Shown one piece after another: positions 10,794 through 59,863 of a DNA stretch of 64,000 bases. The position numbers and the translations under genes were made by a program. How positions within the stretch are numbered: the stretch's first letter is position 1; each line of letters begins with the position of its first letter. The DNA is from Eledone cirrhosa. Its lineage: Eukaryota. The stretch lies in NCBI GenBank assembly GCA_964016885.1, contig OZ024759.1:17980001-18044000 (forward strand), in the 5' to 3' direction. The notes beneath the pieces were generated by a model. The model was not told where the DNA came from. It was given only the letters and a program-made list of their open reading frames with translations, and did not search any database.

Positions 10794-10864
10794 TGTTTTA
10801 TCTGATGAAAACACAAATATTATTGCATGATGATATTTGTTTTTGAAATGCGCATAATAAAATA
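10794..10864 (+). ncRNA. Type I hammerhead ribozyme motif (minimal stem III)
   Basis: Stem I TGTTTTAT/ATAAAATA; CTGATGA 10802-10808; 15-bp stem II with one mismatch and one G-U; GAAA 10845-10848; palindromic TGCGCA stem III; predicted cleavage after 10856 (AUA). Confidence 0.85.
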
Positions 10865-10894
10865 CATGGAACTCTTTTAACCATCTTTTGTTCT

Positions 10895-10955
<61 letters not shown>

Positions 10956-11165
10956 CGTGTGTTCATGTTGGGAGGTGGGGGTGGCTGAACTTGCCTGTAG
11001 AACAATATGGGAGTGGGTGGAGCCAGTCAATCATTGAAAGTGAATTCTTTGTTCTACAGGCAAGTTCAGCCACCAAGACCGCCCCTGCCATGAAAGATTT
11101 AATTGTGTTTACAAGAAATGTTAACCAATCCTTTTGACAACTACATTCTTCCTATATAAGGAATT

Positions 11166-11260
11166 ACCCCTTGAAAAGTTCAGCTATTTATTACCACACT
11201 AAAAATTCTAATTTAGTCCAGAAATAGCCATCGAAACGGCTTGAGCTCTGCCGTCGGGGT
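11166..11260 (+). ncRNA. Type I hammerhead ribozyme motif, U3-A8 core variant
   Basis: Stem I ACCCC/GGGGT; core TTGAAAA; stem II GCTATTT/AAATAGC with inner ACTAAA/TTTAGT hairpin; GAAA 11233-11236; stem III CGGC/GCCG; GUC triplet ending 11255. Confidence 0.7.
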
Positions 11261-11419
11261 CATACTTTTTCCTATTACCCACTCTACTACCCTAAGTATT
11301 GAGTACTCTGGTGCGTTATGGTCCATCTGGTTCCTTACCACAATTTCTTCGTTCCTTCTTTATATATATATATATTCAATGATATTAAATAAATGGAAAC
11401 TATATTTATAAAACCTATT

Positions 11420-11480
11420 TATTCTATTATATATATTTCAAGGGTACCAAAACTTTGGTACGCTTTCATCAGATAAAATA
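11420..11480 (-). ncRNA. Type I hammerhead ribozyme motif (minimal stem III)
   Basis: Minus strand: TATTTTAT CTGATGA AAGC GTACCAAA GT TTTGGTAC CCTT GAAA TATATA TA ATAGAATA. Confidence 0.85.
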
Positions 11481-11563
11481 CAAAGTTTGTTTTATATCCA
11501 AGAAAAACTTGAACCGTTAAGGAATGTTTCTTGGTTATGTCAACATTTATAAAACAAACTTTG

Positions 11564-11624
11564 TATTTTATCTGATGAAAGCGTACCAAAGTTTTAGTAC
11601 CCTTGAAATATATATAATAGAATA
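11564..11624 (+). ncRNA. Type I hammerhead ribozyme motif (minimal stem III)
   Basis: TATTTTAT, CTGATGA (11572-11578), stem II, GAAA (11605-11608), TATATA, TA, ATAGAATA. Confidence 0.8.
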
Positions 11625-12207
11625 AATATGGTTTTATAAATATAGTTTTCATTTATTTAATAACATTGAATATTATACTCCAGAAAACATGTTGAGTGCT
11701 CTAAATCAATTATAAACATTTATATTTGTTGAATTACCAACAAATTGTATATCCCTTTTGCTTATATATATATGTTTATACATCTTATACGTGCATTGAT
11801 ACGTATATATACATACATACTATCTATCTAAGGGACAATACAATTCCATATACAAGGTTTACAGATGAATTTTTCACATCTTTCACACAGAATATAGGGT
11901 TATTTCTGATCACCATATCTCTCCTGTAATGTGTTGTTACAAGTTCTATGCAGTCTGAAGTGTTAATTACGGTTATATGTTAGTTATGTAAGTTCATACT
12001 TGAATGGCCAATGAAAAAATATTTCTAGTGGAAAGCTTTTATACTATATAGTTGACTAGTTAGCATTAAAAATGGGGTGGAAAGCAGTCGGTTGTAAACC
12101 AAGATAAAGAAATATGTATATATTTTTAATATAATTGTTTGTAAATATTCAGATGTGTAGAACAGGCCTGTGTATAGTTACTATGTCTGTCTATCTAGCT
12201 ATCTATC

Positions 12208-12326
12208 TGGGGATTTCGATTGTTACAATTGTTTGTTTTATATTTTTTTACACGATTGTATGTAAAATCCCTAGTATGTCTTTGTTTTGACCCCTTTTCT
12301 TGTGTGCCCATGTGGCTAATAAAGAA
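12208..12326 (+). mobile_element. Tx1-like 3' UTR-only fragment
   Basis: TGTAAAATCCC...ATGTGGCTAATAAAGAAA end, similar to the 3' ends at 515-570 and 13270-13336; bounded by (TATC)n. Confidence 0.55.
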
Positions 12327-12329
12327 ATA

Positions 12330-12364
<35 letters not shown>

Positions 12365-12366
<2 letters not shown>

Positions 12367-13336
12367 GAGTGTGCCCAGGCGCTCACCGCCCTCTGGCAGG
12401 CGGATCCGGTTATCAGTGGAGACTCCACCGCAACATTCTATAGAGGGCTGGTACGCAGCAGGTGCGACGACGCCCTCGGAGAAGCCCTAGACATGGAGGA
12501 GGACGAACTGGCCAGCCTGTTCGGTAGGACATTCAGCCCGGGACCTATGGACAACTTCCAGAAGTCCCTGGCCTGGCAGTGCTACCGAGGGGCTTTACCC
12601 GTTCGAGAAAGGCTCTACAGACACGGGCGCCCGGGAAGGGACCCCGCCAAAAAGATCTGTCCCAGATGCGTGTGCGACGAGGAAACCGTTGCACACGCAT
12701 TGGTACACTGCTCGGGCGTAGCCGATCTGTGGGGCTATGTCGAACAACTGCTGTCAAGGGTGGGACCGATCCGGTTGACCACCGAGTCGATTGTAATGAT
12801 CAAGCCGCCTCCCCCCTTCAAAGATGAAGCAGAGGCGGTGTTTCTGTGCGTAATAGCCATGGCGAAAGAGGTTGTATGGTGGACGCGTCTGAAAGGACTG
12901 AGGTCAGGCACCTTTCTCTCTGTCCAACAACTGGTCCGTTTCTTCCGATATCATTTCGGAAGAAGGATCAGGATGGAGAGAGAGGTGCTGCACCCCAGCC
13001 GTTTCTATGAAAGATGGGTGAAAGTGGCGAGAATGGCCCGTGTGAATGGGCCTTCACTCTACATCAGACTATAGGTGAGGAAGATAAAAGACCAAGGGAG
13101 CACCCCTTCTCTGTGCTCCTGAGGAGAAGGGTTGCACACTTTTTTCGGGGGTGTGTGCGACCCCCCAAGGCGCCTCCTCTCTATTGAGGATTTTGTTAAA
13201 AATTTTATTTTTTGTTATATCTTATTTTATTTTTATATTTTGTTATTGCCTTCTCCTTATTGAGGACGCCTTTTTGTGTAAACTCCCCCCTTTGTACTTG
13301 TCCCACTTTTGATGCCCTAGTGGCAAATAAAAGAAA
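12365..13336 (+). mobile_element. 5'-truncated Tx1/L1-clade non-LTR retrotransposon (intact ORF2 C-terminus plus 3' UTR)
   Basis: Uninterrupted frame to the stop at 13074 with CPRCVCDEETVAHALVHC zinc motif; AATAAAAGAAA end; (TATC)n on both sides. Confidence 0.88.
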
Positions 13337-13438
13337 TATATCTATCTATCTATCTATCTTTCTATCAGTGTATTTGTATGTTGGACATATAGTTATATGC
13401 ATGTATATTTATAAACAAGCACACACATATATAATATA

Positions 13439-13487
<49 letters not shown>

Positions 13488-13741
13488 ATATATATGTATT
13501 CTAACCCATGCTAGCATGGAAAATGGACGTTAAACGAAGATGATGATATGTATATATGTATGTATATATATATATGTATGTATATATATATATATATATA
13601 TATATCTATATATATGTATATATATATATATGAATGTATGCATAGTATATTTTGCAATAAATCGTATGTTTAATTAAAAACATTTTGAAGACCTTACGCT
13701 ATCATTTTAAAGTAGTGACTATGTCACTTACTTCTTTTCGG

Positions 13742-14080
13742 CGAAGAAGGCAGAGAAGCTAACAGTCTGTTTCACGCTCTTTGGCAATTATCAGAGCTAC
13801 GTACACCCCTCTTCCGCCAAAAATTATAGAAGCTGGATTCTTATAGAATTCCAGTAATAACCAGGAGCTGATTATACAGAGCGATTGCCGGTCTAGCAAA
13901 AATTAGCGATGTATACATGAAATGTATGCATAGTATATTTGGCAATATAACGTATGTTTGATTAATACTGGAATTCTATAAGAATCCAGCTTCTATAGTT
14001 TTCGGCGGAAGAGGGCAGTACGTAGCTCTGATGATTGTCAAACAGCATGAAACAGACTGTTAGCTTCTCTGCCTTCTTCG
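13742..14080. mobile_element. Inverted repeat pair (13742-13859 / 13961-14080) with hammerhead motifs, Penelope-like remnant
   Basis: Arms are reverse complements. A 42-bp direct repeat lies at 13630 and 13917. Flanked by (TA)n. Confidence 0.7.
14024..14065 (+). ncRNA. Type I hammerhead-like motif (mirror copy 13757-13798 on minus strand, with core CTGATAA)
   Basis: AGCT CTGATGA T-TGT-CAAACA-GCA-T GAAA CAG-A-CTG TT AGCT; stems are short. Confidence 0.6.
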
Positions 14081-14150
14081 TATGTATATATATATTTCGT
14101 TTCTGAATTTGTTTAGCTAGATTCTTTATCTGAAAACGTGTGTTGAAAAC

Positions 14151-14356
14151 GATATTGTTATACTTTGGGAGGGTCATGTTGCTAATAAGAAACACACGCA
14201 CCAGCTGCCTTCACTCCAATTTATTAAAAATTTATAAATTAAAAAATAAATAAATTTTTTCTAAAAAAATTTTTTTATTTTATAATAAATTGGAGTGAAA
14301 GCAACTGGTGCGTGTGTTTCTTATTGGCAACATGACCCTCCAAAAGTATAACAATA
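14151..14356. repeat. Inverted repeat with about 70-bp arms and an A/T spacer
   Basis: ATATTGTTATACTTTGGGAGGGTCATGTTGC... vs ...GCAACATGACCCTCCAAAAGTATAACAATAT; arm fragment recurs at 45459-45495. Confidence 0.8.
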
Positions 14357-14476
14357 TATATATATATATGTATGTATATGTATATGTGTAGATCCTGACA
14401 TAAATCGGGGTTCATCACAGTAAATAAGGTACTAAATACAGGAGTAAAGTGTGAACATCATTATTTAATATATATA

Positions 14477-15604
14477 TCATCATCATCATCGTTTAACGTC
14501 CATTTTCCACACTAGCATGGGTCTGGACAGGAATTGTCCCACTTGAGGCAAGATTGGTTGTCTTGCTCAGGACTGTCTGGCGGGTTTTCTACGGCTGGAT
14601 GCCCTTCCTAACACCAACCACATTTACAGTATGGACTGGGAGGTTTTTACCGTGTTACCTACATGGCCACCTTACAGCGTGGACTGTGTGTTTTTTTGTC
14701 GTGACACCTACACGACCTCATTTATTTAGGACTGGATGTTGTGGTACCAACATAGCTCTACATCGAAAGGGGTTGTGTAGATGGCGGCGGGGGTAGGGTT
14801 AGTGGGACGGGGGTGTATTTTGGTTAAGAGGTGCCTACTGACTGGAGGTTTCGCTTTGTACTTAGGCAAGGCGGATCTTCTGTATTACTATGTAGCGCCA
14901 AAGATCTCGGTCCAGTGACATTGTCTTGGAGAGGTGTAAGTGTGTGAGGTTGGATTTTCAAGTTGTCCCAGGTTTTTCTGGGTCTGCCTACTCCGTAGCT
15001 ACCGTCTATTTTGATCGCCCTGCACTTTTTTATACAGCTGTCATCTTTATTGCGCATCACGTGACCATACCAACGTAGTGTTCTCTCAAGTAAACAGCAT
15101 CTGATCCCTCTTATTCCTAATTTCTCACTTAGTTCATTTATGCTTTGCCGTTCACGTATATTACTATTACACATCCAACGGAGCATGCAAGCTTCGTTCC
15201 TCTCCTGTCTGCGTAGATCCTCTGCACACAAGGCCCATGTCTCACTGCCATGTAACATCGCTGTTCGTATGCAAGCATCATACAGCCTGCCTTTTATTTT
15301 TCGAGAGAAACCTTTAGCAGCCAATAGTGGTATAACCTCTCTGAACTTTTTCCAATCCGTTCTGACTCTAGCTACAGTATTTTCAGAGCACCCTCCACCA
15401 CTGCTGATTTTGTCACCCAGGTAACAGAAGGTGTCCACTATTTCTATAGAACCATCTGGGCAATGGAATGAGCTAGTATTCAGTGTGCATTTGCTGCTAC
15501 TTATTGCACCAGAGCACCGGCCACATATAAAATCTATATTCTTAGTTAGCTTACCTGTGATCCCACTACATCTTTTATGCACCCATACTTTGCATTTGGG
15601 ACAT
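14477..15604 (-). mobile_element. 5'-truncated RTE-clade LINE (RT C-terminal region, 3' UTR, (GAT)n tail)
   Basis: ORF 14824-15699 has FCYLG, MLHGSETW, LRWYGHVMR and GRPRKTW, the RTE C-terminal signatures; tail at 14477-14490. Confidence 0.92.
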
Positions 15605-16059
15605 TTAATATATATATATATTAAAAGATTTATGTTTATATATATAGACAAAGAGCCATATATTGTAATATATGACTCTTTCTCTCTATATATAAACATA
15701 TATTCTTTTAATTTGGTTATTATGGCTCTAGATAAAGTCTACTGAGCTTACTTATTGGAAAAGTGTGGAAAAGCAGACATTAAAATGATGACGATTATGA
15801 TGATGATGATGATGATATATATGAAGGAAATATGTTTGGAACATGCTGAGCAAAGCTTGGAATTAAAATAGAAATAGAAGCTTCCTTGTAACATTTTGAC
15901 TAACTAATATATTATCTAGTCAAAATGTTACAGCAAAACTTGCATTTCTATATATATATAAAGGCGGCCGACCGAACTAGAAACTACTAAATGTGTGGCC
16001 GCCTTCTTGTCTCTTTGCATTTTCAGTCCCATGGATTATATTCCTTTGTTAAATTTTGA

Positions 16060-16117
16060 ATACTTGATGATGTCACCGGATTCATACTGAACCCGGGCAT
16101 TGAAATGTTCATAGTAT
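16060..16117 (+). ncRNA. Type I hammerhead-like motif (U3 core); homolog with CTGATGA core at 17793-17850 on minus strand
   Basis: ATAC TTGATGA, stem II with CCGG/CCGG and TTCA/TGAA, GAAA TGTTCA TA GTAT. Confidence 0.6.
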
Positions 16118-16181
16118 AATAAACCTTTAAGAAATTACACCAGTCCAGCCTCCTGTTATTATATAATAATTAACGCTTTGA

Positions 16182-16325
16182 CGCATAGAGTTACGGCCCT
16201 TGCCATTCTGAGTTCAAATCCCGCCGAGGTTAACTTTGCCTTTCATCCTTACGGGGTCGATAAAATAAAGTACCAGTAATGCACTAGGTAATTGCTGGCC
16301 TTGTGCCAATAGTAGAAACAATTAT
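16182..16325 (+). mobile_element. SINE family 1, partial copy
   Basis: B box GAGTTCAAATCC and body GCCTTTCATCCTTACGGGGTCGATAAAATAAAGTACCAG. Confidence 0.85.
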
Positions 16326-16520
16326 ATAATAATTAACTCCGTACTCACACCACCAACAACACAAACGAAGACGGGTGAGTTGGATTACATCGAGTGCTCT
16401 CCCTAATATTACACCGAGGTTGACCATACGGAATGACTAGTTCTATCCAGTGTTAAACCAACAAACCTAAATATATATATATATATATATATATATTTAA
16501 AAGAATATTTATTTATTTAT

Positions 16521-16628
16521 TTATTATAAGAACAGATTAAAGTTTAAGCAAAGAATTTCTGCTTTCACTCTTAACGTTAAGAGTGAATACAGCAATTCTT
16601 TGCTTAAACTTTAATCTGTTCTTATAAT
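16521..16628. repeat. Near-perfect palindrome of about 110 bp centred on TTAACGTTAA
   Basis: TTATTATAAGAACAGATTAAAGTTTAAGCAAAGAATT... mirrored by ...AATTCTTTGCTTAAACTTTAATCTGTTCTTATAATAA. Confidence 0.85.
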
Positions 16629-16691
16629 AAATATTTGCTCTACGGGTTTATATATATATAATATATGAAATTTCATTTCATTTTTTCCGTT

Positions 16692-16731
<40 letters not shown>

Positions 16732-17020
16732 ATTATATATAATCCTTATTGATCCCTCTTCAGATTTTAGTCTTCACATTTATTATTGCTATCATCATCA
16801 TCATCATTTAACGTCCATCTTCCATGCTAGTATGGGTTAGACGGGATTGTCACACTTGAGGCAAGATTGGTCGGGTGACCATTTCTCGCTCATATAGAAC
16901 TGTATCTGGCAGGTTTTTCTAGTATTACTATATATATATAAACGGAAAAAAAATGAAACGATATTTCATTTCCCACTCTTAGTACGGCTGTTACTTAAAT
17001 ATAAGTATGTAGGAAGGTAT

Positions 17021-17063
17021 ACGTTGCTGACGATAGCTAACAAGCTTGAAACTAGTACAGCGT
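17021..17063 (+). ncRNA. Compact type I hammerhead ribozyme motif
   Basis: ACGTTG CTGACGA T-AGCT-AACA-AGCT-T GAAA CTAG TA CAGCGT: 6-bp stem I, palindromic CTAG stem III, GUA triplet. Confidence 0.8.
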
Positions 17064-17516
17064 TCCTTTGTCAGTGTTGAACAAACGAGCAACGGTGGTT
17101 GCTAGACACTACGGCTTAATACGGGATGTTTATTTACAAACACACCGAGCATTATAATAAATGTTCGGTGAATCCATACGTGCATATATATATGTGTGCA
17201 TGTATGTATATATATATATATACATACTACTGTATGTCGGTATACATATATGTATGTACGTGTACATACTTATATATATATATATATATATTAGCAGAAA
17301 CTAATGCATTTGTCTGGGGCCAGAGAATCAAATTCTCTACTCACATGAAATCGTTTTTCTCACTATTTAACGTATTAGTGTGCACTGTGCTTTCTTTTAA
17401 GTTGGTATCTTAATTATACTGGCTTACTTAAAGCATTGCGTGAGTAGGAAAATGACTGAAGGGTTTTTGGTCCTATCTAATAACTTTGTTTCATTATTAT
17501 TACTATTATATATATA

Positions 17517-17685
17517 GGGTGGTGGATTGGCAGTATCGGTAGAGAGTTGGACACCATGCTTTCCAGCACGGTTGTGTCCCTTTACAGACTGAGTTCAAAT
17601 CCCGCCGAGGTTAACTTTGCCTTTCATCCTTGCAGTAATGTACTCGATAATTGCTAGCCTGTGCCAAAAGTAGAAACAATCATTA
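17517..17685 (+). mobile_element. SINE family 1 copy
   Basis: A box TGGCAGTATCGG, B box GAGTTCAAATCC, AGTAGAAACAAT tail. Confidence 0.85.
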
Positions 17686-18048
17686 CTATTATATATATAT
17701 ATCATCATCACATATATATATATTATTGAGTAAAATGGTAAAATGACAGGAGGCTGGACTCATGAAATTCCTTCAAAGATTTATTATAGCAAATGCTATG
17801 AACATTTCAGTGGCCAGGTTCCGTAAGATCCTGGTGACATCATCAGGTGTTTATTGCATAATAGTTATATAATAAAGGAATAATGGTAAACACAATTTTT
17901 TTTAAACGTTAAAAACAATCCAAGAGGCTATAAGGATATAAAAAAACAGCGAAAAATGTTTTTGAGTCGAGGGCGATCAAGAGGGCCAGTTGTTGACAGT
18001 TTGGCCGACCACCAGTTCTATCCAGTGTTGAACCATCAAACTTAAATG

Positions 18049-18096
<48 letters not shown>

Positions 18097-18166
18097 ATCG
18101 CAGAATTACTACTACCTTGTGGGATGACCAATCCTGGTGATTATCTCTTTGACCATATATGGAATT

Positions 18167-18261
18167 GCCCCTTGACAAGTTCGGCTATTTAAATACCAGA
18201 ACTGATTTTTCATTCAGTACAGAATTAGCCGTCGAAACGGCTTGAGCTCAGCCGTTGGGGT
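18167..18261 (+). ncRNA. Type I hammerhead ribozyme motif, U3-A8 core variant (second copy)
   Basis: GCCCC/GGGGT stem I; TTGACAA core; CGGCTA/TAGCCG stem II with inner ACTGA/TCAGT hairpin; GAAA 18234-18237; CGGCT/AGCCG stem III; GUU triplet. Confidence 0.7.
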
Positions 18262-18271
18262 CTTACTTACT

Positions 18272-18311
<40 letters not shown>

Positions 18312-18314
<3 letters not shown>

Positions 18315-18908
18315 TCATCATCATCATCATCAACGTTTAACGTCCGTGTTCCACGCTTGCATGGGTTTGGACGGGGGTAGTCCCACTTGAGGCAAGAGTG
18401 ATTGTCTTGCTCGCATAGGACTGTCTGGCAGGTTTTCTACAGTTGGATGCCCTTCCTAACACCAACCACATTTACAGTGTGGGTCTGGGAGGTTTTTACC
18501 GTGTTGCCTACACGGCCACATTACAGCGTGGACTGTGTGTTTTTTTGTCGTGACACCTACACGATCTCATTTGTTTCGGCCTGGATGGCGCGGCACCAAC
18601 ATAACTTTACATAGAACGGGGTGGTGGCGGGACGGGGTGTATTTTGTTAGAGATGCCTACTGGCAAGGCGGGTCTTCTCTGTTACTGAGTACCGCCAAAG
18701 GTCACGGTCCAGTGACATTGTCTTGGAGAGGTGTAAGTGTGTGAGGTCGGAGTTTATCAGCTCATCCCATGTTTTTCTAGGTCTGCCTATTCCGTGGCTA
18801 CCGTCTATCTTTATTGCCCTGCACTTTGTAATACAGCTATCGACTTTCATGCGCATCACGTGTCCATACCAACGCAGCCTTCTCTCGAGTAAACAACATC
18901 TGATCCCT
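18312..18908 (-). mobile_element. 5'-truncated RTE LINE 3' end
   Basis: ORF 18647-18859 (CRAIKIDGSHGIGRPRKTW) parallels 14824-15699; 3' UTR and (GAT)n tail. Confidence 0.9.
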
Positions 18909-18925
18909 CTATATATATATATACA

Positions 18926-19113
18926 CAGGGAAACTTCTGTATAATGAATACCATTATAACAAATTTTTTTGGTATAACAACATTTTTTTCAATCCCCGAG
19001 TTAGTAACAAACAAACACTTGATTTGTTTTGGTCGATCTCATTATAAAGAATTTTTCGTTAAAACAAATTTTTTTTTATAGCCCGTGAATTTCGTTATAA
19101 TGGAAATTCACTG
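18926..19113. mobile_element. Tigger/pogo-like MITE
   Basis: Imperfect TIRs CAGGGAAACTTCTGTATAATGAA / TTCGTTATAATGGAAATTCACTG followed by TA. Confidence 0.6.
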
Positions 19114-19959
19114 TATATATATTACAGGAGTAAAATTAACAAAATATTTTTTATACTGTGCCTTACTATTATTAGTTACTTTTTATTGGAAGATTGTTTT
19201 GGTTGAAGGAGGGAAGGATGTAGTCCCCATGTTTCTGCAGCCTCTGTGTACATATATATATATGTATGTAATTATATTCTTCCATGAAGATATTGAATCT
19301 GTGTTTATTGTATAGAAATCAATATTGAAGGAGGTATCCTGGGTCGAATAAACCTCCTACAATAGAAGATTTATTAATAAATGGAATTTCTATCATGTAA
19401 GAGCCCATAGAAAACGTGGGAAAATATATGGTAAAATCCCACTTGATTCAAAGGAAATTACAGTTCTAAAACTTCTCCCAAATATTAACTATATATTATG
19501 TAATAAAGTTAGTAACATATCTATCTGATCTGATATAGAAAAATGCAGTACGGTGACAAGATGTAAATTACATTATGATTGTAAGCGTTCCAACAGTGAT
19601 AGCCCCCAAGAATAAATATGATGTTAACCCACTAGCTCCTAGATGTTTTTATTTATTTATGTTTTTGTCATTATAAGAAAATACATAAAAGTCTTTGACA
19701 TGAAAAGAATTTGCTGCATTAGCTTGCCCTTCAGCAAGTGGGTCAGCATACTACATTGTGTTGAAGTTAACCCAAAGCCAAAATTCTCTGTGGCTTGATA
19801 TAAATTTAGTAATGTAATTTCAGAATATACTAACAGACAAAACTATGTGGAAAACCCCAGACCTTCACATCAAAATTAACTCTTATCACCCTATAATGAT
19901 TTAGTAGAAAATATGTAATGCACATGGGGCATGTTTCTGTGATTTCTGAGGGAGTTGTG

Positions 19960-20146
19960 GGGGCATTGGCAGTATCGGTAGAGGGTCGGACGCCATGCTT
20001 TCCAGCATAGTTACGTCCCTTTACGATCTGAGTTCAAATCCCGCCGAGGTTGACTTTGCCTTTCATCCTTACGGGGTCGATAAAATAAAGTACCAGTAAT
20101 GCACTGGGTAATTGCTGGCCTTGTGCCTAAAGTAGAAACAATTATA
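19960..20146 (+). mobile_element. SINE family 1, full copy; its tail is the left breakpoint of duplication copy 2
   Basis: A and B boxes, conserved body, AGTAGAAACAATTATAT tail. Confidence 0.88.
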
Positions 20147-22135
20147 TTGATATACATCATTTTGTAGCATATTTTTAAACCAGGTAGAGCCCATCTCTCT
20201 AGATCTGAGTACAGAAGATTTATTCTAGAGAAAGATAGATAGTGGGAGAATGGGAGTGAGAAAGAGATACAGAGGAAAAATCGATCCCCAGTACTTGACT
20301 CAAATGGATGAAAGGCAAAGTTGACCTTGGCAGGATTTGAACTCAGAGAGCTGAAATGAATACTGCAAAGCATTCTATCTGATGTTCTAAGGATTCTGCC
20401 AACTCACCACCTCTAGAAGATATGTAACATCGTTGTTAAATCAAATGTTTATAGTATCTTTCCTATACAACAAATTGTTTTGAAAATTTAGTAGTTAGAG
20501 TAAAGACTTTAATATTTAATATGATGTAAGCTAGTACAAACTGATTCATGGTTGAGTGGTTGCCGACTAAATATGCTCCCCCACAAGACCCTAGTCTGGT
20601 AAAGAGGGTAAGTGGAACCCCCGGCAGCACAAATATGGGTTAAATAGTCTCACCAACCCACAATTGGCCAAGTGTGGTGGGTACAGCTACACCCTTGACA
20701 TGATAAAAACCAAACAGAAAGTGGTGGAGGTCAACCAGGGAAGGGTTCCTTCAACGGGAGTGAGAAGGCCCTGGATTGGATTAGATTATGCTAAAAATAA
20801 TATTGCATATGTGTGCTGATAATTAACTCTTAACATCTTGTAATGTTTAAGCAAAACAATCTAACAATAGCTTTGTTAATTCAAATGTTTATTGTATCTT
20901 TATTAGTGGACAAGTTGCGAACACTTTAAACATTAGAGCAAAGACTTAAACATTTTTAATGTAATGTTTTGTATTTTTAATGAATGACTTGCTAATGTGG
21001 TTTACCATGGTACAGGATGTTAAAAGTTGAAAGAGAATTGACTAATCGTAACAAAACAGATTAAAGATAGATAAAGAAATGCTTTAGCTAAGTATGCATT
21101 CCTACCAATAAGTCTGGTAGAAGAAAACGGCAAATAAATATTTATCATGCTAATAATCTTTCGAAACATTGGCAAATTTCCAAAATTCCACAAAGTCCGT
21201 AAGCAAAGGAAAACTGTATCAATAATAATTGGAGCACTATATATGATTAAAAAAAAATACAATGTAGAGAATACAAACCATATGAGGGCTGTCAACTTTA
21301 CACTCACTCCCAAATATAGACTTGCTTAGCACAGCTTACATTGTATGCCAGACACTTTAAATTCAATAATACAACTGAAATAGTTGTGGTAGTGAATTGG
21401 AATATATTTCAAGTACATTACACCCTCAACATACAACACATCCATTCACCATTCTGTAAAATAATATAGCTCACACAGCAGATTATCTATGAAATCACCA
21501 CCATATCATCATCATCATCATCATTTAGTATCTGTTTTTAATTCTAGCAAGAGTTAGATGGGTAATCGCATAGCAAGTCATTAATTAGTTGGGGCTACAG
21601 TCTACTGTGTAGAACAAATAAAATGGAAAAACAGACCGTCTCATCTTCTCAGTCAACCTCTGGAAATCACTATAGTTTTGGTTAATTAAGGTTAATACTA
21701 TTCATTCCAGTGTACATTAAGATGTAACAAAACAGGTAGAGATAAAGACAGGCTAAGTTATGCCTTCGGTGAATTACAAAAATGACGGTCTAACGTATCT
21801 CAAGCAAATCAACTGACAAAGAAGAGAGGGAACAATGTGTGAGGTCTTAGTCAGAGGAGATAAAAATATAGAAAAGAGAGCATTAGAAAAACGGAAGTAA
21901 TAGGCACTGCAGTTGAATGTGCCAACAAAGAAGAATGACACTGGCATATTAGAAAGGAGAATAGGGGAAAAGACACTGTGGCGTCAAATATAAGATAGTA
22001 TTTTTTTAAAATCAAAACACATGGCTAAGTCTTCAGAATATGAATTTAAAACAAGCTGGGCGTCGCACAAACACAGAACAAAGACAATATGAACATACAC
22101 ACACACACACATACGCACACATATAAAGTATGGTG

Positions 22136-22181
<46 letters not shown>

Positions 22182-23521
22182 GTGTAACTGGCCTTTCACA
22201 CTTACACCTCTCTTAGACAATGTCTCTGGCTTGAGACCTTTGGCGCTACACAGCAATACAGAAGACCCGCCTTCCCTTACGTACAAAGTTAAACCTACAC
22301 CCCATCCCATTACCCCCACTCCATTCTTCCACTTCCACCCACATCACCCTTTCTCTGTAACGTTATGTTTGTACCACAGAACACCCAGTCCACACTGTAA
22401 TGTGTTCGTGTAGGTGTCACGACAAAAAGTACCCAGTCCACGCTGTAAAGTGTTCGTGTAGGTGTCACGACAAAAAGTACCCAGTCCACGCTGTAAAGTG
22501 TTCGTGTAGGTGTCATGACAAAAAGTACCCAGTCCACGCTGTAAAGTGTTCGTGTAGGTGTCACGACAAAAAGTACCCAGTCCACACTGTAAAGTGTTCG
22601 TGTAGGTGTCACAACAAAAAGTGTTCGTGTAGGTGTCACGACAAAAAGTGCCCAGTCCACGCTGTAAAGTGTTCATGTAGGTGTCACGACAAAAAGTACC
22701 CAGTCCACACTGTAATGAAGTCATATAGGTGTCACGACAAAAAGCACCCAGTCCACACTGTAAAGTGTTTGTGTAGGAGACACAGTAAAAAGGTTCCCTG
22801 TCCACACTGTAAATATGGTTGGTGTTAGGAAGGCCATCGAACCATAGAAAACCTGCCAGATACAATCCTATACAAGCGAGACACGATCAAATGGGACAAT
22901 CCTGTCTAACATCTAACCCATGCTATTGTGGAAGATGGACGGTAAGCGATGATGGTGAAGATGATGATGATGATATATATATATATATATTATGAAATTA
23001 ACGAAGACCACTGGTATTAATTCAATGGTTTCCGGCCAGCATCTAGCTCATTCAATGAATCTGCCAAATTGCAGTAATGCAGTTGCAATCAGCTGTTCAG
23101 AGTGCACACATTTAATTAATAGCAGATATGGTGGTGGGGTTTAGGTAGAGAGAAAGGTAAAATTCTCATATTCTGGACGATAACGTTTCTGCGCAACATA
23201 ACTTCACAAATGCAGATCACCCCGTTCTATGTAAAGTTATGTTGGTGCCGCGCCATAGGCCGAAACAAATGAGATCGTGTAGGTGTCACGACAAAAAAAC
23301 ACACAGTCCACGCTGTAATGTGGCCGTGTAGGCAACACGGTAAAAACCTCCCAGACCCACACTGTAAATGTGGTTGGTGTTAGGAAGGGCATCCAACTGT
23401 AGAAAACCTGCCAGACAGTCCTATGCGAGCAAGACAATCACTCTTGCCTCAAGTGGGACTACCCCCGTCCAAACCCATGCAAGCGTGGAACATGGACGTT
23501 AAACGTTGATGATGATGATGA
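20140..23521 (+). repeat. Segmental duplication, copy 2 (direct repeat of 7410-10626)
   Basis: Same sequence as copy 1 with a longer 48-bp minisatellite (22385-22810). Confidence 0.95.
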
Positions 23522-29372: not shown

Positions 29373-29439
29373 TCTTGGAAAGGGGATTTAAATAACAATA
29401 ATGTGCCAGTTTCAGCCTTCAGTTATCAGAAGAAGGGGG

Positions 29440-51858: not shown

Positions 51859-52087
51859 TTAACCCTTTAGTATTTAAACCGACCATATCTGGCCAGAGTT
51901 CTGTCGCCTGTTGCTATTTAAACCGGCCATAATTGACTGCTCATACTGATGTTAAGGTATTGTTCTCAAAATTAATAACATCAAAATCTCATAGATTCGA
52001 TATTATGTGAGATAATTATGTAAGATAAAGCCTTTACCACAAAAATACAATAGTATATATAGAGTAATGTAAATGCTAAAGGGTTGA
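51859..52087. mobile_element. piggyBac-like MITE
   Basis: TTAA CCCTTTAG ... CTAAAGGG TTGA; homologous to 32638-32866. Confidence 0.78.
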
Positions 52088-52465
52088 ACAACTGAGAGTA
52101 CAAGACTCCTCCTTGGACAGGATGCCAATTCATCACAGGGTTAAACCCCCAGCAGTTTCTGGTACTCATTTTCAGCTGAGTATACTAGAGCAATGTGAAA
52201 TGAAGAGCTTTGCTCAAGAACACAACAAACAATCCAGACCAGGAATCCACCCCATGACATTATGATCTGAGGTCCGATACCTTTACTACTAGGCCACATG
52301 GCTCCACTTTATGTCCAGGTATTTGGAAATCTTCCACTGCTCTGTGTTACAGATGGCAGTACCCTGGTTTGTTATGACTGGCACTAAGGAAAGACCATTG
52401 ATGAAAAGTTGCTGCTATTATCATAGCTTTTACTTAAGTAATTACACTTTGTTATATATTTGGAA

Positions 52466-52655
52466 GGGCGGTGAATTGGCAGTATCGGCAGAGGGTTGGA
52501 CGCCATGTTTTCTAGCATAGTTACGTCCCTTTACAGTCTGAGTTCAAATCCCGCCGAGGTTAACTTTGCCTTTCATCCTTACGGGGTCGATAAAATAAAG
52601 TACCAGTAATGTACTGGGTAATAGCTGGCCTTGTGCCTAAAGTGGAAACAGTTAT
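52466..52655 (+). mobile_element. SINE family 1 copy
   Basis: A and B boxes and conserved body. Confidence 0.85.
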
Positions 52656-52880
52656 ATATTTGGAATAATGACATGCTTGCCTGTGTTTGGTGTATGTGTG
52701 AGGCAGAGAAAGAGAGATAGAGGTATATATAGAGAGATAGACCGACAGATAGAGACAGGGTGTTTGAGAGAGCAAGAGAGATAGTATATGTGTATGTTTG
52801 TGTGTATGTGTGTGTGAGAGAGAGCGAGAGTGAGAGAAAGGGTTTGTCGTTTATATGCATATGTATGTGTTTGTGTGTAA

Positions 52881-52940
<60 letters not shown>

Positions 52941-53817
52941 ATGCATGTGTTTGTGTGTGTGAGAGAGACAGTGAAAGACAGATAGAGACGGGAGAGTGAG
53001 GGATATATTGCATGTGTGTGCGTGAAAGAGAGTGAGAGAGAGCATGTGAGAGAAAGTGTTTGTCTGTTTATATGCATATATGTGTGTTTCTGTGTGAGGA
53101 TATATATATATATATATATATATATATGGATGCCTGTGTTTGTGTGTGTGACACTGTGTGTACTTGTGCATGAGACAGGGAGAGAGAGAGACAGACGAAG
53201 TGTATATATGTGTATATATGTGTATTAGTTGAGTTGATGGGGTGTCAGGATAACAGTTGAAGTGTAAATAATTCACATCCAGTTTGTTCTAGACACACTG
53301 TGTAATACAAGTGTTGTGATACTGTTTAGAAATGCCTGGAAACATATTGGCAGCTCAGCTCTAACTGGTTATGACTATGAGGGGTTTAATCCGTTCTTAG
53401 CCAGCTAAATTGGATGACCGGAACTGACCACCAAGGAAGATTCAATTGAATTATTTATGGTAAATGAAAAATCTCCCTCTGTGTATGTGTGTGTATGTGC
53501 GTACATCATGATAACTGTCTTAAATGATTACTTTACCATTTGCTAATTAGGCATTCTGACGAGCCAGAGTAATTGAGGAAGGTTTGATAATCTGCAAATG
53601 TCAGTCAGTCAATAGTTTTGTAAGAGTGATCGTAAGTGGGAGGCAAACTCTATTGAAGGGCGGCTTAATTGATTCAAAGACAGTCTAACATTTTCTAGAT
53701 GTATTTTACTGCTGAGAGTTGCAATAATGCATTCTTAGGTGTGACCTCATCACTCCTGTATTAATTATCAGCTTATGTCTAATATCAGTTGACAGCTTAT
53801 ATCTGTAGTTGTGATAG

Positions 53818-54410
53818 TTAACCCTTTTGTTAGCATATTTCTTATGGAAAACTCTGGCTGTGATTTTCAAAGAGTTTTGAAAATATTCATGGATTTGGAG
53901 AGGTTGAAGAAGAGGTTATTGTATAAAATCATGATGGAAGACTTTTAAATCAATATAAAAAAACTTTAACCCTTTCATTACCATATTTGTTCCGAAAGAT
54001 ACTACTTATGATTTCAACTTTGATAATATTCAAGAATTTTTTAGTGATTAACTAATATAAATATCCTTCTCATCATTAAACAAGCAAGTATTTGGAACAT
54101 AACTTAAGAAACGATTCTTGCATAAAATTATGATGAAGAGGTTTTAGATAAATATAAACACATTAATCCTTTTATTACCATAAATATTGTGAAGGATAGT
54201 GCCAATGATTTTCAAATAATTTCAAAGTTAAAAAAATTTAAGATTTAATAACATTATCAAGCTTGTGTTTGAATTTAGTAGCATTATTTAGCTGGCATTT
54301 GGAGCGTAACTTAACAAAGGTTTCATATAAAATTACGACGGAAAGTTTTTTGAAAAATATGTGTTAGAGTGTTTATCATCTTTACTGAAAATAGATGTTA
54401 AATGGTGGTT
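53818..54410. repeat. Degenerate tandem of TTAACCCTTT-initiated units (MITE-end derived)
   Basis: Units start near 53818, 53967 and 54163 and share the ATAAAAT..TGATG(G)AAG motif. Confidence 0.5.
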
Positions 54411-54539
54411 ATTATAATCTCTAAAACAAGCAGTTGGGCTGGGTATATTTATTAGGTCACAAGCACTACCACTTTACAGGGTGGGCTTAGTACATTGATC
54501 ATGACATCAGCATTACCTCTTTACATTGTGTACTGGGTG

Positions 54540-55285
54540 CATTTTATTTTGACACCAGCACTACCACATTACAAGGTGGGCTGGTACATTTGTCATGGCA
54601 CCAGCACTACCACATTACAGTGTGGGCTGGTGCATTTATCATGGCACCAGCACTACCACATTACAAGGTGGGCTGGTCCATTTATCATGGCACCAGCACT
54701 ACCACTATACAGTGTGGGCTGGTCCATTTATCATGGCACCATCACTACCACTATACAGTGTGGGCTGGTCCATTTATCATGGCACCAGCACTACCACTAT
54801 ACAGTGTGGGCTGGTCCATTTATCATGGCACCAGCACTACCACTATACAGTGTGGGCTGGTCCATTTATCATGGCACCAGCACTACCACTATACAGTGTG
54901 GGCTGGTGCATTTATCATGACACCAGCACTACCACATTACAGTGTGGGCTGGTGCATTTATCATGGCACCAGCACTACCACATTACAAGGTGGGCTGGTC
55001 CATTTATCATGGCACCAGCACTACCACTATACAGTGTGGGCTGGTGCATTTATCATGACACCAGCACTACCACATTACAGTGTGGGCAGGTGCATTTATC
55101 ATGGCACCAGCACTACCACATTACAAGGTGGGCTGGTCCATTTATCATGGCACCAGCACTACCACTATACAGTGTGGGCTGGTGCATTTATCCTGGCCTC
55201 AGCACTACCACATTACACTGTGGGCAGGTCCATTTAACATGGCACCTTCACTGCTACTATACAGGGTAGGCTGGTCCATTTATTG
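54540..55285. repeat. 45-bp minisatellite (about 16 units), RTE-3'UTR-related
   Basis: Unit ATGGCACCAGCACTACCAC(AT/TA)TACAGTGTGGGCTGGT(C/G)CATTTATC; related to 2880-3340 and 3960-4335. Confidence 0.9.
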
Positions 55286-55741
55286 CTATTATTTGTATAT
55301 TTTCCTTTGATTTTGCTCATATGCAATGACTATGGAGTCTCGACCAGATACTTGGGGCATGTATCGTTGGTTTTGACAGATTTTAATCACTTTAATTTTT
55401 CCACTTTTTTAAGGGGAGTCGATTAAATCAACCCCAGTGCATTACTGATACTTTATTTTATGGATTCATCATTACAGGTGTTGATAAAATAAAGCACCAG
55501 TAACAAACTGGAGTCGATTTAATCAACTTTCTCCCCTCCCCCCAAATTGATGGTCTTGTGCCTAAATCAGAAACCATTCTTCTTCTTATTTTTATTGTTT
55601 TTCCTTTTCCTTCAGTATTGTTTCTGATATATGCCAAGTGTCTTCCAGACTCCTAGGGCAATAAATTCACTGTATACATTGGTAAGCCAGTTAACACACC
55701 ACATTGAATATCATTTACTGCTGCTTATCATTCTTACAGAG

Positions 55742-56238
55742 CATTGGTTCCCAACCAGGGGGCCATGGCCCACCAGTGGGCCATAGGTAGTTACTGGGGG
55801 AGCCACGGGAATTAACTAAAAATCACAATATTTCATACATAAAAAAGAAGAGTAGTTTCCTAACATAATTTTTTCTTTTTCTTGCTTCAAATTTTTATAT
55901 TCAACTTTTTATCAACTTTCTACCTTTTCTAATTATGATTTCACTTCACTTGATAATTATTTAAATCTGGATATAACAATTTATGTTTTAGTAAATAAAC
56001 TTAGTAAAGAAACTTATTTTTATAACAGGATATATATTATTTATTTTAGTAAATTTTAGTGAAGTTTATAATAAATTTAAAATGATTTGATTGAAATAAA
56101 AAGACATGCCGAAATTATTTCTACATAAAAAAATTATATCAAAAATTTTAATTTTTTTTTTTGGGGGGGGGGGGGGGGGGCATACCATTTTGCTATATTA
56201 TTAAGGTGGAATTTATTATAAAAGGTTGGGAACCTCTG
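55742..56238. mobile_element. Non-autonomous hAT element (MITE)
   Basis: TIRs CATTGGTTCCCAACC / GGTTGGGAACCTCTG; perfect 8-bp TSD TTACAGAG at 55734-55741 and 56239-56246. Confidence 0.9.
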
Positions 56239-56321
56239 TTACAGAGGGATATCATTCTTACAGAGATAGTATCTACTCTCACACACACACAACCACACAA
56301 AGGGGGAGGGGTATCATTCTC

Positions 56322-56470
56322 ACAGAGATAGTGCTTTTCTCAATACTTGTGGAATACCAGTCAAAACAATTTTCTTGCTGAGAGGGTAAACCAGGAATCA
56401 TTCACAAATACTGTTCTGTTCCTTTCTTGATCATTCCCAGTGCTTCCACAATCACTGGTATTGTAATGGC
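56322..56470 (-). pseudogene. R4/Dong-like LINE extreme C-terminus remnant
   Basis: Minus strand reads IPVIVEALGMIKKGTEQYL..IPGLPS..KIVLTGIPQVLRKALS. Confidence 0.6.
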
Positions 56471-56489
56471 ACAGACAGTAGATGTTTCA

Positions 56490-56960
56490 GTATATACTGT
56501 ATTATATGTACAAGGCCCTTGAGGCTAATAAAGAAATTATTATTATTTTTCTTGTTATTTTGTTATTGTCATTTATATTTTTTCTCGATTTTTATGTAAA
56601 ACCCCCACTGTCCTTGTCTATTCTATTGTCCCCTATATGTCGGACCTTGTGGCCAATAAAAAAAACAATTATCATTATTATACCCTGAGCATATGCCTGT
56701 AGTACTGTAGGAGGAAAACTAGAAGAGGGCGCTTGCCCTAGCGGTCAGGGTAACCGTGGCTTTTTTTGTGGGCTTTCTCCACGAGTGACCCTCGGAAGTC
56801 TCCCTCCTATTGGGGAATTTTTCCTCGTTTCGTTTTTGATACATCCTTGGCTTTTGTTTTTTGTACTTTCCTGTACCGTCCTGTGCTGTCCTTAATGTTA
56901 TACTTTCTGTCAACCCTTGTGGTTAATAAAGAAAGCATTATTATTATCATTATTATTATT
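56490..56960 (+). mobile_element. Three stacked Tx1-like 3' ends in (ATT)n
   Basis: Each ends CCTTG(A/T)GG..AATAAA(G/A)AAA followed by ATT repeats. TTTATGTAAAACCCCC is shared with the 515-570 Tx1 3' UTR. Confidence 0.55.
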
Positions 56961-56969
56961 ATTAACTTT

Positions 56970-57285
56970 AGGTGGTGGATTGGCAGTATCGGTAGAGGGT
57001 CGGGCGCCATGCTTTGAAGCATAGTTACCTCCCTTTATGATCTGAGTTCAAATCCCGCCGAGGTTAACTTTGCCTTTCATCCTTACATAGTCGATAAAAT
57101 AAAGTACCAGTAATGCACTGGGATAATTGCTGGCCTGGAGCCAAAAGTAGAAACAATTATTATTATGAACTTTGCCTTTCATCCTTACAGGGTTGATAAA
57201 ATAAAGTACCAGTAATACACTAGGTAATTGCTGGCCTTGTGCCAAAAGTAGAAATAATTTTTATTATTATTATTTTTATTATTAC

Positions 57286-57319
<34 letters not shown>

Positions 57320-57320
57320 T
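56970..57320 (+). mobile_element. SINE family 1 full copy plus duplicated 3' half with expanded (ATT)n tail
   Basis: Head at 56970, second body from 57168, tail runs up to the exon acceptor. Confidence 0.85.
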
Positions 57321-57329
57321 ATATTCCAG

Positions 57330-57522
57330 ATGAACAAGAAAATCGTAATGCATTTTTGAAGCATTTCGAAGAACAATTGGATATCTATGAAAAGATCTCT
57401 GTAGTAACCTTGGTGGAACTGACAGGTAAAGAGCAAGTGATTGGAAATGCCTACCTGGACCGGATTCTTGATTTTAACTCCAAAGACTTGAAATACATAA
57501 CGTTTGACTTCCATGAATACTG
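57330..57522 (+). CDS. INPP5F: Internal exon of a SAC-domain phosphoinositide phosphatase, SAC2/INPP5F-like
   Basis: Acceptor TTCCAG (ends 57329), donor GTAAGT (57523). Encodes EQENRNAFLKHFEEQLDIYEKISVVTLVELTGKEQVIGNAYLDRILDFNSKDLKYITFDFHEY(C), matching from memory the vertebrate INPP5F segment HFEEQLNIYKKQVIINLVDQAGREKIIGDAYL...YVSFDFHEHC. Phase 1 start, phase 2 end. Confidence 0.88.
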
Positions 57523-57570
57523 GTAAGTTTGTGTTCTATCATTTACTCTCTCCCTTTCTCCCCCTTTCTT

Positions 57571-57625
<55 letters not shown>

Positions 57626-57639
57626 AATTGCTGTCCTTG

Positions 57640-59170
57640 GGCCTAAATTAGAAATGATTATGATTTTAATTTAGGCCCAAGGCAAGTAAATTTTGGGAAA
57701 GGGCAAAGTTGATTACATCAACTCCAGTACTTCTTTGGTACTTTCCATTTTTAACCCACGGAGGGATGAAAGGCAAAGTTGACCTCTGCCAGATTTGAAC
57801 TCAGAAAGTAAAGAGCCAAAATAAAAGCTGCAATGGCATTTTATCTGTTGCTCTACTGTTTTTGCCAATTCACCACCTTCAATGATTTCTAATCTAGGCA
57901 TAAGGCCAGCAAATTAAGGAAAAAGGCAAAGTTGATTAAATTGACCCCAATATCTGACAGGTACTTTATTTTATTGACCTTGGAGGGATGCAAGGTCAAG
58001 TTGACCTTGTTGGAATTGAAATTCAAAATGTAATGGGTCAGAAAAAGTACTCAAATGGCATTTTATCCAATGCCCCACCAATTCTTCCAAACCACTGCTC
58101 TTATGGTTATCATATTTATGAAAATACCTTGTAGTAAAGGTGGTGAATTGGCAGAATCATTAACAGCATCAAGACGACATGCCTTACGGTGTTTCATTGC
58201 TGCTCTTTGAGTTTATATCCTGTTGAGGTCAACTTTGCTTTTCAACCTTCCAGATAATCAATGAATTAAACCAGCATTTAAGTCCTGCAGTCAAAATAAT
58301 TAACTTTCCCCATCCTCGTCATATTTTCCAACCTTGTGCTGAAATTCATAACAGTTTTACTCTGGCAGATGTTATACTGACACTATATCAACAGAGCAAG
58401 CCATAGCCAATGGCCAAGTGTCCTTTGGGTCATTCTTTCTCTTTCAACTTTCTAAAACTTTCCTTAGAATCCTTGCTGTAGAGCATCAGACACCATCCTT
58501 TGCAGCATAGAGTTAAGCCCTTTACGTTCTGAGTTAAAATCCCGCTGAGGTTAACTTTGCCTTTCATCCTTACGGGGTCGATAAAATAAAGTACCAGTAA
58601 TGCACTGGGGTAATTGCCAAAAGTAGAAACAATTATTATTATTATTGTGGATTGACAGTATCGGTAAAATAAAGTACCAGTCGTGCACTGGGGTCGATTT
58701 AATCAACTTTCCTCTCCGCCAAAATTGCTGGCCTTGTGCCTATATAAGAAACTATTATTATTATTATCCTGTCCTCTCTCAGGATTGATCAAATTATCTT
58801 TCTTCTCCTGCTAATTTATATCCTTGTTCCTAAAGTAGAAGCAATTATTTTCCAAGGTTCACTTTTGCCTTTCATCCTTCTAGGGATTGATAAAATAAAG
58901 TACCAGTCATATACTGGTACTGATAGAATTACCTTTCCTCTCCTCCAAATTTCTAACCTTGTACCGAAACTAGAAGCAAATATTTACCATGGTCGATTTT
59001 TGCCCTTCATCTTTCCAGGGATTTTAAAATAAAGTATGAATCAACTGCAAGGGTTATTATAATTGATTTTACTCTCCCCACAAAATTGCTGGCCTTGTGC
59101 CTAAATTTAAATTAAGAACTATTATTAATGTTTACTGTGGTAAAGTTATTTCAGGGACTGGCCTTGTGCC
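57640..59170. mobile_element. Cluster of SINE family 1 copies and fragments on both strands
   Basis: Repeated GCCTTTCATCC / GATAAAATAAAGTACCAG / GGCCTTGTGCC motifs. Confidence 0.75.
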
Positions 59171-59373
59171 ATTGTAAAAATTAATAAAAAACAAATATTA
59201 ACAAAGAAATCATCATTAATTATGTATTTCCTCTGTGGAAAATAAAGCATTTTTTTTTAATTCTGGAAGATCATCAAAGACCCCATCAGACAAAAATAAA
59301 AAAGATTAAAAATGAAAATACAAAAAAAAAAAATTCTGATCAATAACATCCATATATATATACATATATATAT

Positions 59374-59417
<44 letters not shown>

Positions 59418-59784
59418 TATTTACCTACAAAACTAATTATGGATATATATGTGTGTGTGTATGTATGTAGGTATATATATATATATATATACCTACATAC
59501 ATACACACATATATATATATATATATATATGTATATGTATGTAGATAGATATATATATACATACATACGCATATATATATATATATATATGTATGCAGGT
59601 ATATATATATATATATACCTACATACATACACACATATATATATACATCCATAATTAGTTTTGTAGGTAAATAAACAAGTTATATTTATTTTTAAGCTGA
59701 AGAGACTTGAATTAAAGGAATATGCTTTTATATCAGCATATCGTTCAGTCTTCTGAGATCCTTTGAAGTGAAAGGTACGAATTT

Positions 59785-59863
59785 CCTGGATATGCGCAGA
59801 AGAGCACAGGAATTCTGGCTTTCACTTAATAATTCTTGCGAAACAGATTTAGATCTGTCCAGG
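59785..59863 (+). ncRNA. Degenerate hammerhead-like motif
   Basis: Core CAGAAGA (U4 lost), stem II GCA..GGAATT/AATTCTTGC, GAAA, stem III CAGAT/ATCTG, GUC, CCTG/CAGG offset stem I. Confidence 0.4.

Follow-up and report, generated by a model that had tools for sequence, protein, structure and literature searches.

Hammerhead-bearing Penelope-like element ends and retrozymes in (TA)n tracts of Eledone cirrhosa, with a candidate twin hairpin beside their two fixed ends

A 64,000-nt stretch of the Eledone cirrhosa genome (assembly GCA_964016885.1, contig OZ024759.1, positions 17,980,001 to 18,044,000 of the forward strand), hereafter the window and numbered from its first base, contains a series of short elements that carry type I hammerhead ribozyme motifs and lie next to (TA)n tracts. 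These elements are almost certainly 5'-truncated ends of Penelope-like elements (PLEs) of the Hydra clade, together with retrozymes that lack an open reading frame (ORF), all seated in (TA)n. The hammerheads of the window are real, are not a hotspot and are known biology in kind, as is their link to PLEs; what the analysis adds is a conserved cis element, a bulged hairpin in the tail of the elements, and a variant of the hammerhead core.

Hammerheads in the window and across the genome

A sequence-only reading of this DNA had proposed 14 type I hammerheads from at least seven unrelated families, forming a hotspot. After a stricter descriptor recovered 4 of the 14 sites (control 0.017), we adopted a relaxed type I descriptor that allows a U3-A8 core and a U.U pair or an inserted base at the foot of stem II. 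This descriptor recovered nine of the sites (10794, 11166, 11420, 11564, 14024, 17021, 18167, 39997, and 45661) and placed all four proposed cut sites (10856, 11255, 11616, and 17057) exactly, while the density was not matched in 100 local dinucleotide shuffles (mean 0.14, maximum 2) and the reversed window gave none. The five sites that were missed (16060, 17793, 41035, 41111, and 59785) are genuine family members, since sister copies in their families pair in all three stems; the window copies are decayed, except for 59785, which has the A4 core typical of its family. The proposed 14 hammerheads thus stand as nine detected by descriptor and five decayed or variant copies. Eight families, A to H, cover all 14 sites, each with at least 40 matches genome-wide and with family alignments that pair at core-adjacent positions, whereas the predicted folding energies of monomers were uninformative (z +0.4 to -2.5, seven sequences). 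The families are not unrelated, as the tested ORFs of A, F, G, and a ninth family, I, are 35-54% identical. Rfam did not register the hammerheads: no hammerhead family was present among the 150 of 220 matches listed or among the 91 matches for 10700-18400, and those listed were repeat-driven miRNA matches only.

The idea of a hotspot was rejected. We sampled 40 arbitrarily placed regions at round coordinates of the 3.0-Gb assembly (399,800 nt) and found 36 descriptor matches, with one in the reversed control. This corresponds to 9.0 per 100 kb (bootstrap 5.5-12.8), compared to 14 per 100 kb in the window, where at least nine matches in 64 kb have P ~0.16. Extrapolation gives roughly 270,000 hammerheads in the genome (165,000-380,000). 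In loci enriched for the families there were 478 matches in 1.21 Mb and none in reversed sequence, and the 387 distinct matches from retrieved loci fall into 28 clusters, ~26 of which are credible families. At many loci, families pile up side by side in common (TA)n tracts, as at 10694-11762 in the window, and such shared tracts may account for local clusters like the one at 10.7-18.3 kb. A palindrome at 14152-14357, with 87-nt arms, adjoins (TA)n and recurs at many loci, and is probably a further PLE fold-back. The elements of the window are listed in Table 1.

Table 1. Hammerhead-bearing elements and related stumps in the window
Positions	Strand	Element	Details
10694..10894	+	Family A, 5'-truncated Hydra-type PLE end	Hammerhead 10794-10864, predicted cut after 10856; short end into (TA)n
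11154..11353	+	Family F, older subfamily	Hammerhead 11166-11260, U3-A8; hairpin 1 in tail 11281-11306; tailed end
11367..11762	.	Family B two-armed insertion	Left arm (-) hammerhead 11420-11480, short end
11564-11624 (hammerhead)	+	Right arm of the family B insertion 11367..11762	Tail with hairpin 11677-11699
13630..14084	.	Family C retrozyme, two-armed, monomer ~305-314 nt	Hammerhead 14024-14065 (+); decayed inverted copy 13742-13863 (-)
16049..16471	+	Family D subfamily	Hammerhead at 16060, C3 decayed; tail remnant 16326-16471 separated by later insertion
16518..16790	.	Family I fold-back, absent from the sequence-only reading	Centre in hammerhead loop II; right arm tailed
16940..17272	.	Family E retrozyme, monomer ~422 nt	Inverted tail; hammerhead 17021-17063 (+); short end
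17715..18050	.	Family D two-armed insertion	Hammerhead ~17793-17853 (-), window-specific mismatches
18094..18272	+	Family F, young subfamily	Hammerhead 18167-18261, U3-A8 core; short end
39965..40178	.	Family G two-armed insertion	Hammerhead 39997-40039 (-)
40937..41193	.	Family G two-armed insertion	Decayed hammerheads 41035 (-) and 41111 (+); left arm tailed
41208..41555	-	Further hammerhead family end (cluster 16), absent from the sequence-only reading	Core decayed
45527..45790	-	Family B subfamily	Hammerhead 45661-45725; tail with hairpin 45589-45610
45990..46162	.	Family F fold-back stump	5' core absent
48572..48783	.	Family F fold-back stump	Left short end, right tailed end; hairpin 48706-48731
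59720..60075	+	Family H retrozyme, monomer ~497 nt (one locus)	Hammerhead ~59785-59865, A4 core of the family

The core CUGANGA had been assigned throughout, and this holds with exceptions in families F and H and at the foot of stem II. Family F has the covariant core U3-A8, which has been described previously (PMC4209133, PMC3088659); among its distinct copies, 6 of 22 combine C3 with A8, a mismatched core pair. In families C, D, E, and G, the closing pair of stem II is U10.1.U11.1, also a described variant (PMC3088659). In family H, 161 exact matches carry A4 and A7 compared to four with U4 and any base at position 7, and A4 occurs in 96 of the first 100 of 268 matches listed. Family I, which is present in the window only as the stump at 16518-16790, has 23,834 pattern matches in the genome, 109 of them with U4, and A4 in all 100 matches of one list. 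This stump lacks the 5' core because its fold-back is centred in hammerhead loop II; the inverted repeat was computed and the family assigned by eye. Perreault et al. (PMC3088659) mention U4C, and their text, figures aside, has no match for U4A; literature searches, whose scope did not extend to Lunse et al. (PMC5785218), returned no report of an A4 core. Since a family of ~24,000 copies spread with an A4 core, the hammerhead may be either dispensable or tolerant of A4.

Stem III is, as had been noted, tiny and palindromic in several families, namely A, B, C, D, E, and G, while F and H differ in having 4-5 bp. The predicted cleavage as dimers would therefore fit only the six palindromic families, and F and H could fold as monomers.

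Autonomous Penelope-like families and ORF-less retrozymes

The window contains no remnant of a PLE reverse transcriptase (RT) or GIY-YIG endonuclease ORF, in agreement with the sequence-only reading. Elsewhere in the genome, RT partners are present: pieces of one kind of ORF lie upstream of the A, F, and G hammerheads on the same strand. Protein searches returned 150 copies for each of these families. Many copies are open over 784 codons in F or 821 in A, and the longest frame in G has 722. Family F forms head-to-tail arrays of 3,542-bp units with an ORF of 717 aa, and family A forms units of ~3,900 bp with the 821-codon frame. Units within one A or F array are 99.9% identical to a nearby unit, so both families are young. 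A sister subfamily of the F copy at 18094..18272, ~89% identical there, retains the intact 717-aa ORF in 3,542-bp tandem units. Full units run hammerhead, leader (with hairpins 1 and 2, described below), RT/endonuclease ORF, 3' untranslated region (UTR), and hammerhead, head to tail. Family D has an RT remnant upstream with the endonuclease part deleted, and a B subfamily ~80% identical to that of the window follows ORF fragments, although the window B subfamily itself was not tied to an ORF. Family I is tied to a Hydra-type ORF, 645 codons of which are open in one copy. The prediction of PLE remnants is thus borne out.

The RTs of A, F, G, and I contain YRDD, and an AlphaFold model of the F protein (pLDDT 93.5) has telomerase RT as its top structural match (TERT 3du5, E 5.9e-9). 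Region 591-681 would fit a GIY-YIG endonuclease, both by its IY..C / Y[IFV]G motif and by its beta-beta-alpha-alpha-beta-alpha fold. In A and F the diagnostics of the Hydra clade are complete, with DKT, a CxCx5C linker, CxxC and CxH around E/N, and no CCHH; the examined frames of G and I end early, yet both show DKT and CxCx5C, and G also has CxxC and CxH. RWK is replaced by RWR/RWT, and units measure 3.3-3.9 kb rather than <3 kb because of long 3' UTRs. We also found the anatomy expected of PLEs, with tandem units, a hammerhead pseudo-long terminal repeat (pLTR), an inverted 5' copy, a tail at one end, and insertion in (TA)n. The family A ORF at one locus (L334) has an Asn-rich insert of ~100 aa between RT and endonuclease, which recalls the N-rich inserts of rotifer Penelope elements (PMC3846280).

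Families C, E, and H occur as circularly permuted or tandem monomers of ~305-314 nt (314 nt three times), ~422 nt, and ~497 nt (one locus), respectively. One 10-kb stretch holds 21 family E hammerheads, whereas H shows more than one unit, yet only as single-hammerhead copies. None has an ORF, the longest ATG-initiated frame being 51-87 aa. Since ORF-less tandem monomers with one type I hammerhead define non-LTR retrozymes (PMC7229834), we class C, E, and H as such, and the suggested non-autonomous, retrozyme-like elements are therefore present. They likely borrow the enzyme of the PLEs. A second tandem retrozyme of ~305 nt (cluster 9; L148 and L068), a relative of C, has a different hammerhead and the same partial tail motif.

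Three points on these proteins and monomers weigh against the overall explanation given below. Sequence searches of the PLE ORFs in Pfam and the PDB returned no significant match (one chance PDB match), the GIY-YIG assignment draws on motifs and predicted secondary structure, and DNA homology of C, E, or H monomers to the five autonomous units tested was not found.

Two fixed ends and a twin bulged hairpin

Beyond the cut site, genomic copies extend for one of two fixed distances before they run into (TA)n, with bimodal lengths of 17/97 nt in F, 36/102 nt in G, 52/146 nt in B, and 38-45/134 nt in A. The stretch between the two ends is the tail, which varies from 66 to 149 nt and in full units forms the first part of the leader that precedes the ATG. 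In nearly all two-armed insertions, one arm has the short end and the other has the tailed end. After correction this held for 72 of 72 insertions (A 19, B 13, C 7, D 1, E 4, F 13, G 7, and H 8), retrozymes included; before it, the count was 58 mixed, 12 short-short, and one tailed-tailed, where all 12 short-short pairs belonged to family A, whose tail starts with TA-like bases, and the tailed-tailed pair was two adjacent F insertions. Because the G query included a portion of the tail, its results are biased toward insertions with at least one tailed arm. Family I pairs were short and tailed in 15 of 17, giving 87 of 89 overall. We did not find this pairing rule in print.

The tail contains a hairpin composed of RCUC, a variable inner stem, a one-sided bulge usually of 2 nt (mostly UU, UC, or UA), GAGY, and usually RC. 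A strict test was passed in 10 of 15 tails (shuffle p <=0.002 each); the hairpin is looser in the window B copy, partial in C, and unmatched in the C relative, E, and the E relative. In A, B, B2, D, F, G, and H, the short end is followed after 6-13 nt by hairpin 1; in A, B2, F, H, and I, the tailed end is followed after 7-10 nt by hairpin 2. These distances were drawn from separate analyses rather than one uniform table. Clusters 19 and 24 had no observed short end, and their spacing was left out of the count. Read-through copies were available for eight families, D not among them, and five of the eight have hairpin 2. It is absent from both arms of insertions, and since it is not copied into either arm, it would act on a longer template or intermediate.

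For an independent set, we used 77 homologous element loci from marine metagenomes with ~40% protein identity, 48 of which contained a hammerhead followed by 150 nt of sequence. Of these 48, 41 had the motif's 3' half, and 26 had it twice, ~55-80 nt apart, whereas controls gave 3/48 and 5/48 and never two. Among 50 instances in which only the outer letters were required, the inner positions pair in 98, 74, and 70%, compared to 76, 43, and 38% when permuted, and none of 5,000 permutations reached the observed inner pairing. At the first inner position C-G (28) and U-A (20) alternate, and other bulge sizes abolish the pairing. A hand-picked set, selected unlike the 50-instance test and comprising 24 of the 50 held-out hairpins and six window copies with one row misaligned, was 97% paired, with double changes in five of seven pairs. 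In contigs where the 3' copy ends in a simple repeat (5 of 15 listed copy pairs, the other 10 reaching the contig end or being uninformative), the hairpin starts 0-3 nt after the last shared base in all five (three by eye, one variant). We found no published description of the tail hairpin, although subscription papers, Repbase reports, and unseen supplements could hold one.

The best explanation overall is probably that the window holds truncated Hydra-clade PLE ends and retrozymes in (TA)n, in which twin hairpins fix where reverse transcription starts. For the twin-hairpin mechanism taken by itself, we lean only slightly toward acceptance, on the strength of sequence patterns and of analogy with PAc, a Poseidon element from Anolis. 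In this proposed mechanism, the RT-endonuclease would cut both strands of (TA)n and dock on the hairpins, and each cut strand would prime one cDNA where UA-rich bases precede a hairpin on its 5' side. Synthesis of both cDNAs would usually stop early, and their joining would give palindromic stumps whose centres differ between copies. Unit-length or circular RNA would be released by hammerhead cleavage, which is probably not needed for insertion. In PAc, two internal start sites equal the tail ends and both strands are cut and extended; its protein has been modelled as a dimer, and it inserts without ribozyme cleavage in vitro (PMC11167929).

Several observations tell against this mechanism or narrow what can be read from it. 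The motif was defined after inspecting A, B, D, F, and G. Hairpin 2 was unmatched in the read-through copies of G, C, and E. The retrozymes C and E obey the pairing rule, yet E lacks both hairpins and C has only part of hairpin 1 and lacks hairpin 2; these two families are the main difficulty for the hairpin model and may use another signal or partner. PAc has the same start sites on both target strands (PMC11167929), which does not alone give the rule of one end of each kind. That rule also has exceptions, as a looser automatic recount gave 135 mixed, 15 short-short, and nine tailed-tailed insertions. By eye, 12 of the short-short pairs had a mutated tail, two were artefacts, and one was real, while seven of the tailed-tailed pairs read on into the next unit and two were real, leaving three real exceptions. 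Finally, counts of G.U and A.C do not fix which strand folds.

This last point also speaks for an alternative that we regard as unlikely, in which the hairpins are cut signals on a DNA intermediate. A long tandem cDNA would then be resolved by the endonuclease immediately 5' of each hairpin, and the two ends would arise from this resolution instead of from RT initiation. Craig et al. (PMC8557442) ascribe the tail to resolution by the endonuclease, and the D. virilis endonuclease, as cited in PMC11167929, needed the tail for recognition. On the other hand, the start sites of PAc in vitro coincide with the tail ends (PMC11167929), and a one-sided 2-nt bulge with a covarying inner stem requires a single strand. 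Equally doubtful is the idea that the hairpins serve a promoter, translation control, or ribozyme folding, with their closeness to the ends incidental and TA microhomology alone setting those ends. Hairpin 2 does lie ~25-70 nt upstream of the likely start ATG, UA-rich bases follow each end, and C and E have fixed ends without full hairpins; against this, H has no ORF and yet retains the two hairpins with unchanged spacing, and this spacing is preserved although the tail varies in length. Chance matches in AT-rich sequence, or DNA-transposon miniature inverted-repeat transposable elements (MITEs) as the source of the palindromes, are extremely improbable and were refuted by the reversed-sequence controls (478 against 0 in family-enriched loci, 36 against 1 in sampled regions), for although several window copies fold no better than shuffles and the stumps resemble terminal inverted repeats, the hammerheads are directly linked to RT ORFs and the palindrome centres vary from copy to copy.

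Other window features, known systems and implications

The window also contains features apart from the hammerhead elements. An exon-like frame at 57326-57526 (+) matches the SacI homology domain (Syja_N, E 4e-13), so the window probably overlaps a gene for a SAC-family phosphatase. A 640-codon Thr/Pro/Val repeat frame of 36-nt units at 49495-51417 (-) is either mucin-like or a plain minisatellite. The 3' ends of long interspersed nuclear elements (LINEs) with a zf-RVT domain, at 12391-13074 (+) and 750-1289 (-), end in and are seated in (CTAT)n, and possibly belong to a microsatellite-targeting Tx1/L1 family. RTE-like LINE pieces at 14824-15738 (-) and 18647-18988 (-), with a PHD finger within the RT region, are abundant at other loci. 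Near-identical ORF translations at 7134-9990 and 20011-22886 point to a local duplication ~12.8 kb apart.

The autonomous families share with the Hydra-clade PLEs of Craig et al. 2021 (PMC8557442) a putative C-terminal endonuclease, DKT, CxCx5C, CxxC/CxH, the absence of CCHH, the (TA)n target, and the type I hammerhead, and their hammerhead table includes a stem II U.U pair; their supplement lists Hydra-1_Obim from Octopus bimaculoides with a hammerhead and a (TA)n target. They differ in having units of 3.3-3.9 kb rather than <3 kb, tails of 66-149 nt rather than 30-40 nt, RWR/RWT for RWK, intact tandem arrays, and many families. The main text of PMC8557442 has no match for hairpin or stem-loop. 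Like the minimal hammerheads of metazoan PLEs described by Cervera and de la Pena 2014 (PMC4209133), ours are mostly single motifs of truncated PLEs, with opposite-strand pairs 100-700 bp apart, U3-A8, a palindromic stem III, and high variability within a genome. We estimate ~270,000 copies where they give 2,000-9,000, although the descriptors differ, and A4 cores were not seen in the examined parts of that paper. In Octopus vulgaris, 30 recently active Penelope families have been reported, in a text with no match for hammerhead (PMC13282606).

Families C, E, and H resemble published non-LTR retrozymes, since their tandem monomers measure 300-500 nt, lack an ORF, and carry a single type I hammerhead, and a PLE origin of retrozymes has already been proposed (PMC7229834; bioRxiv 10.64898/2026.07.22.740005). 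Here the retrozymes themselves bear the PLE insertion signature of two fixed ends, a tail, an inverted arm, and (TA)n, whereas the bioRxiv study (10.64898/2026.07.22.740005) bases its case on vertebrate genomes, in which it reports co-occurrence and homology of pLTRs. PAc (Frangieh et al. 2024, PMC11167929) likewise has two internal RT starts bounding the tail, but it belongs to another clade and its starts lie within one AC-rich stem loop inside the ORF. Unlike in PAc, the proposed starts here precede the ORF, and each has a separate conserved bulged hairpin immediately 3' of it.

Roughly a quarter million hammerhead stumps, by our estimate, escape Rfam and protein-based tools in this genome and resemble MITEs, a number above the 126,247 reported for axolotl, with the descriptors again differing. 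Families with an A4 core provide a natural test of whether the ribozyme is necessary, and the young families A and F, with intact ORFs, supply protein. We are evenly divided on whether the twin hairpin would be a clade-wide cis element of Hydra PLEs, in which each hairpin docks one subunit of an RT-endonuclease dimer and sets one priming site, retrozymes hijack this machinery, and the hammerhead is dispensable or tolerant of A4. If true, the twin hairpin would explain both the Penelope tail and the single tailed end of each insertion. For the choice of internal starts by PLEs, the one-ended tail, and the relevance of the hammerhead, it gives a defined and testable RNA element.

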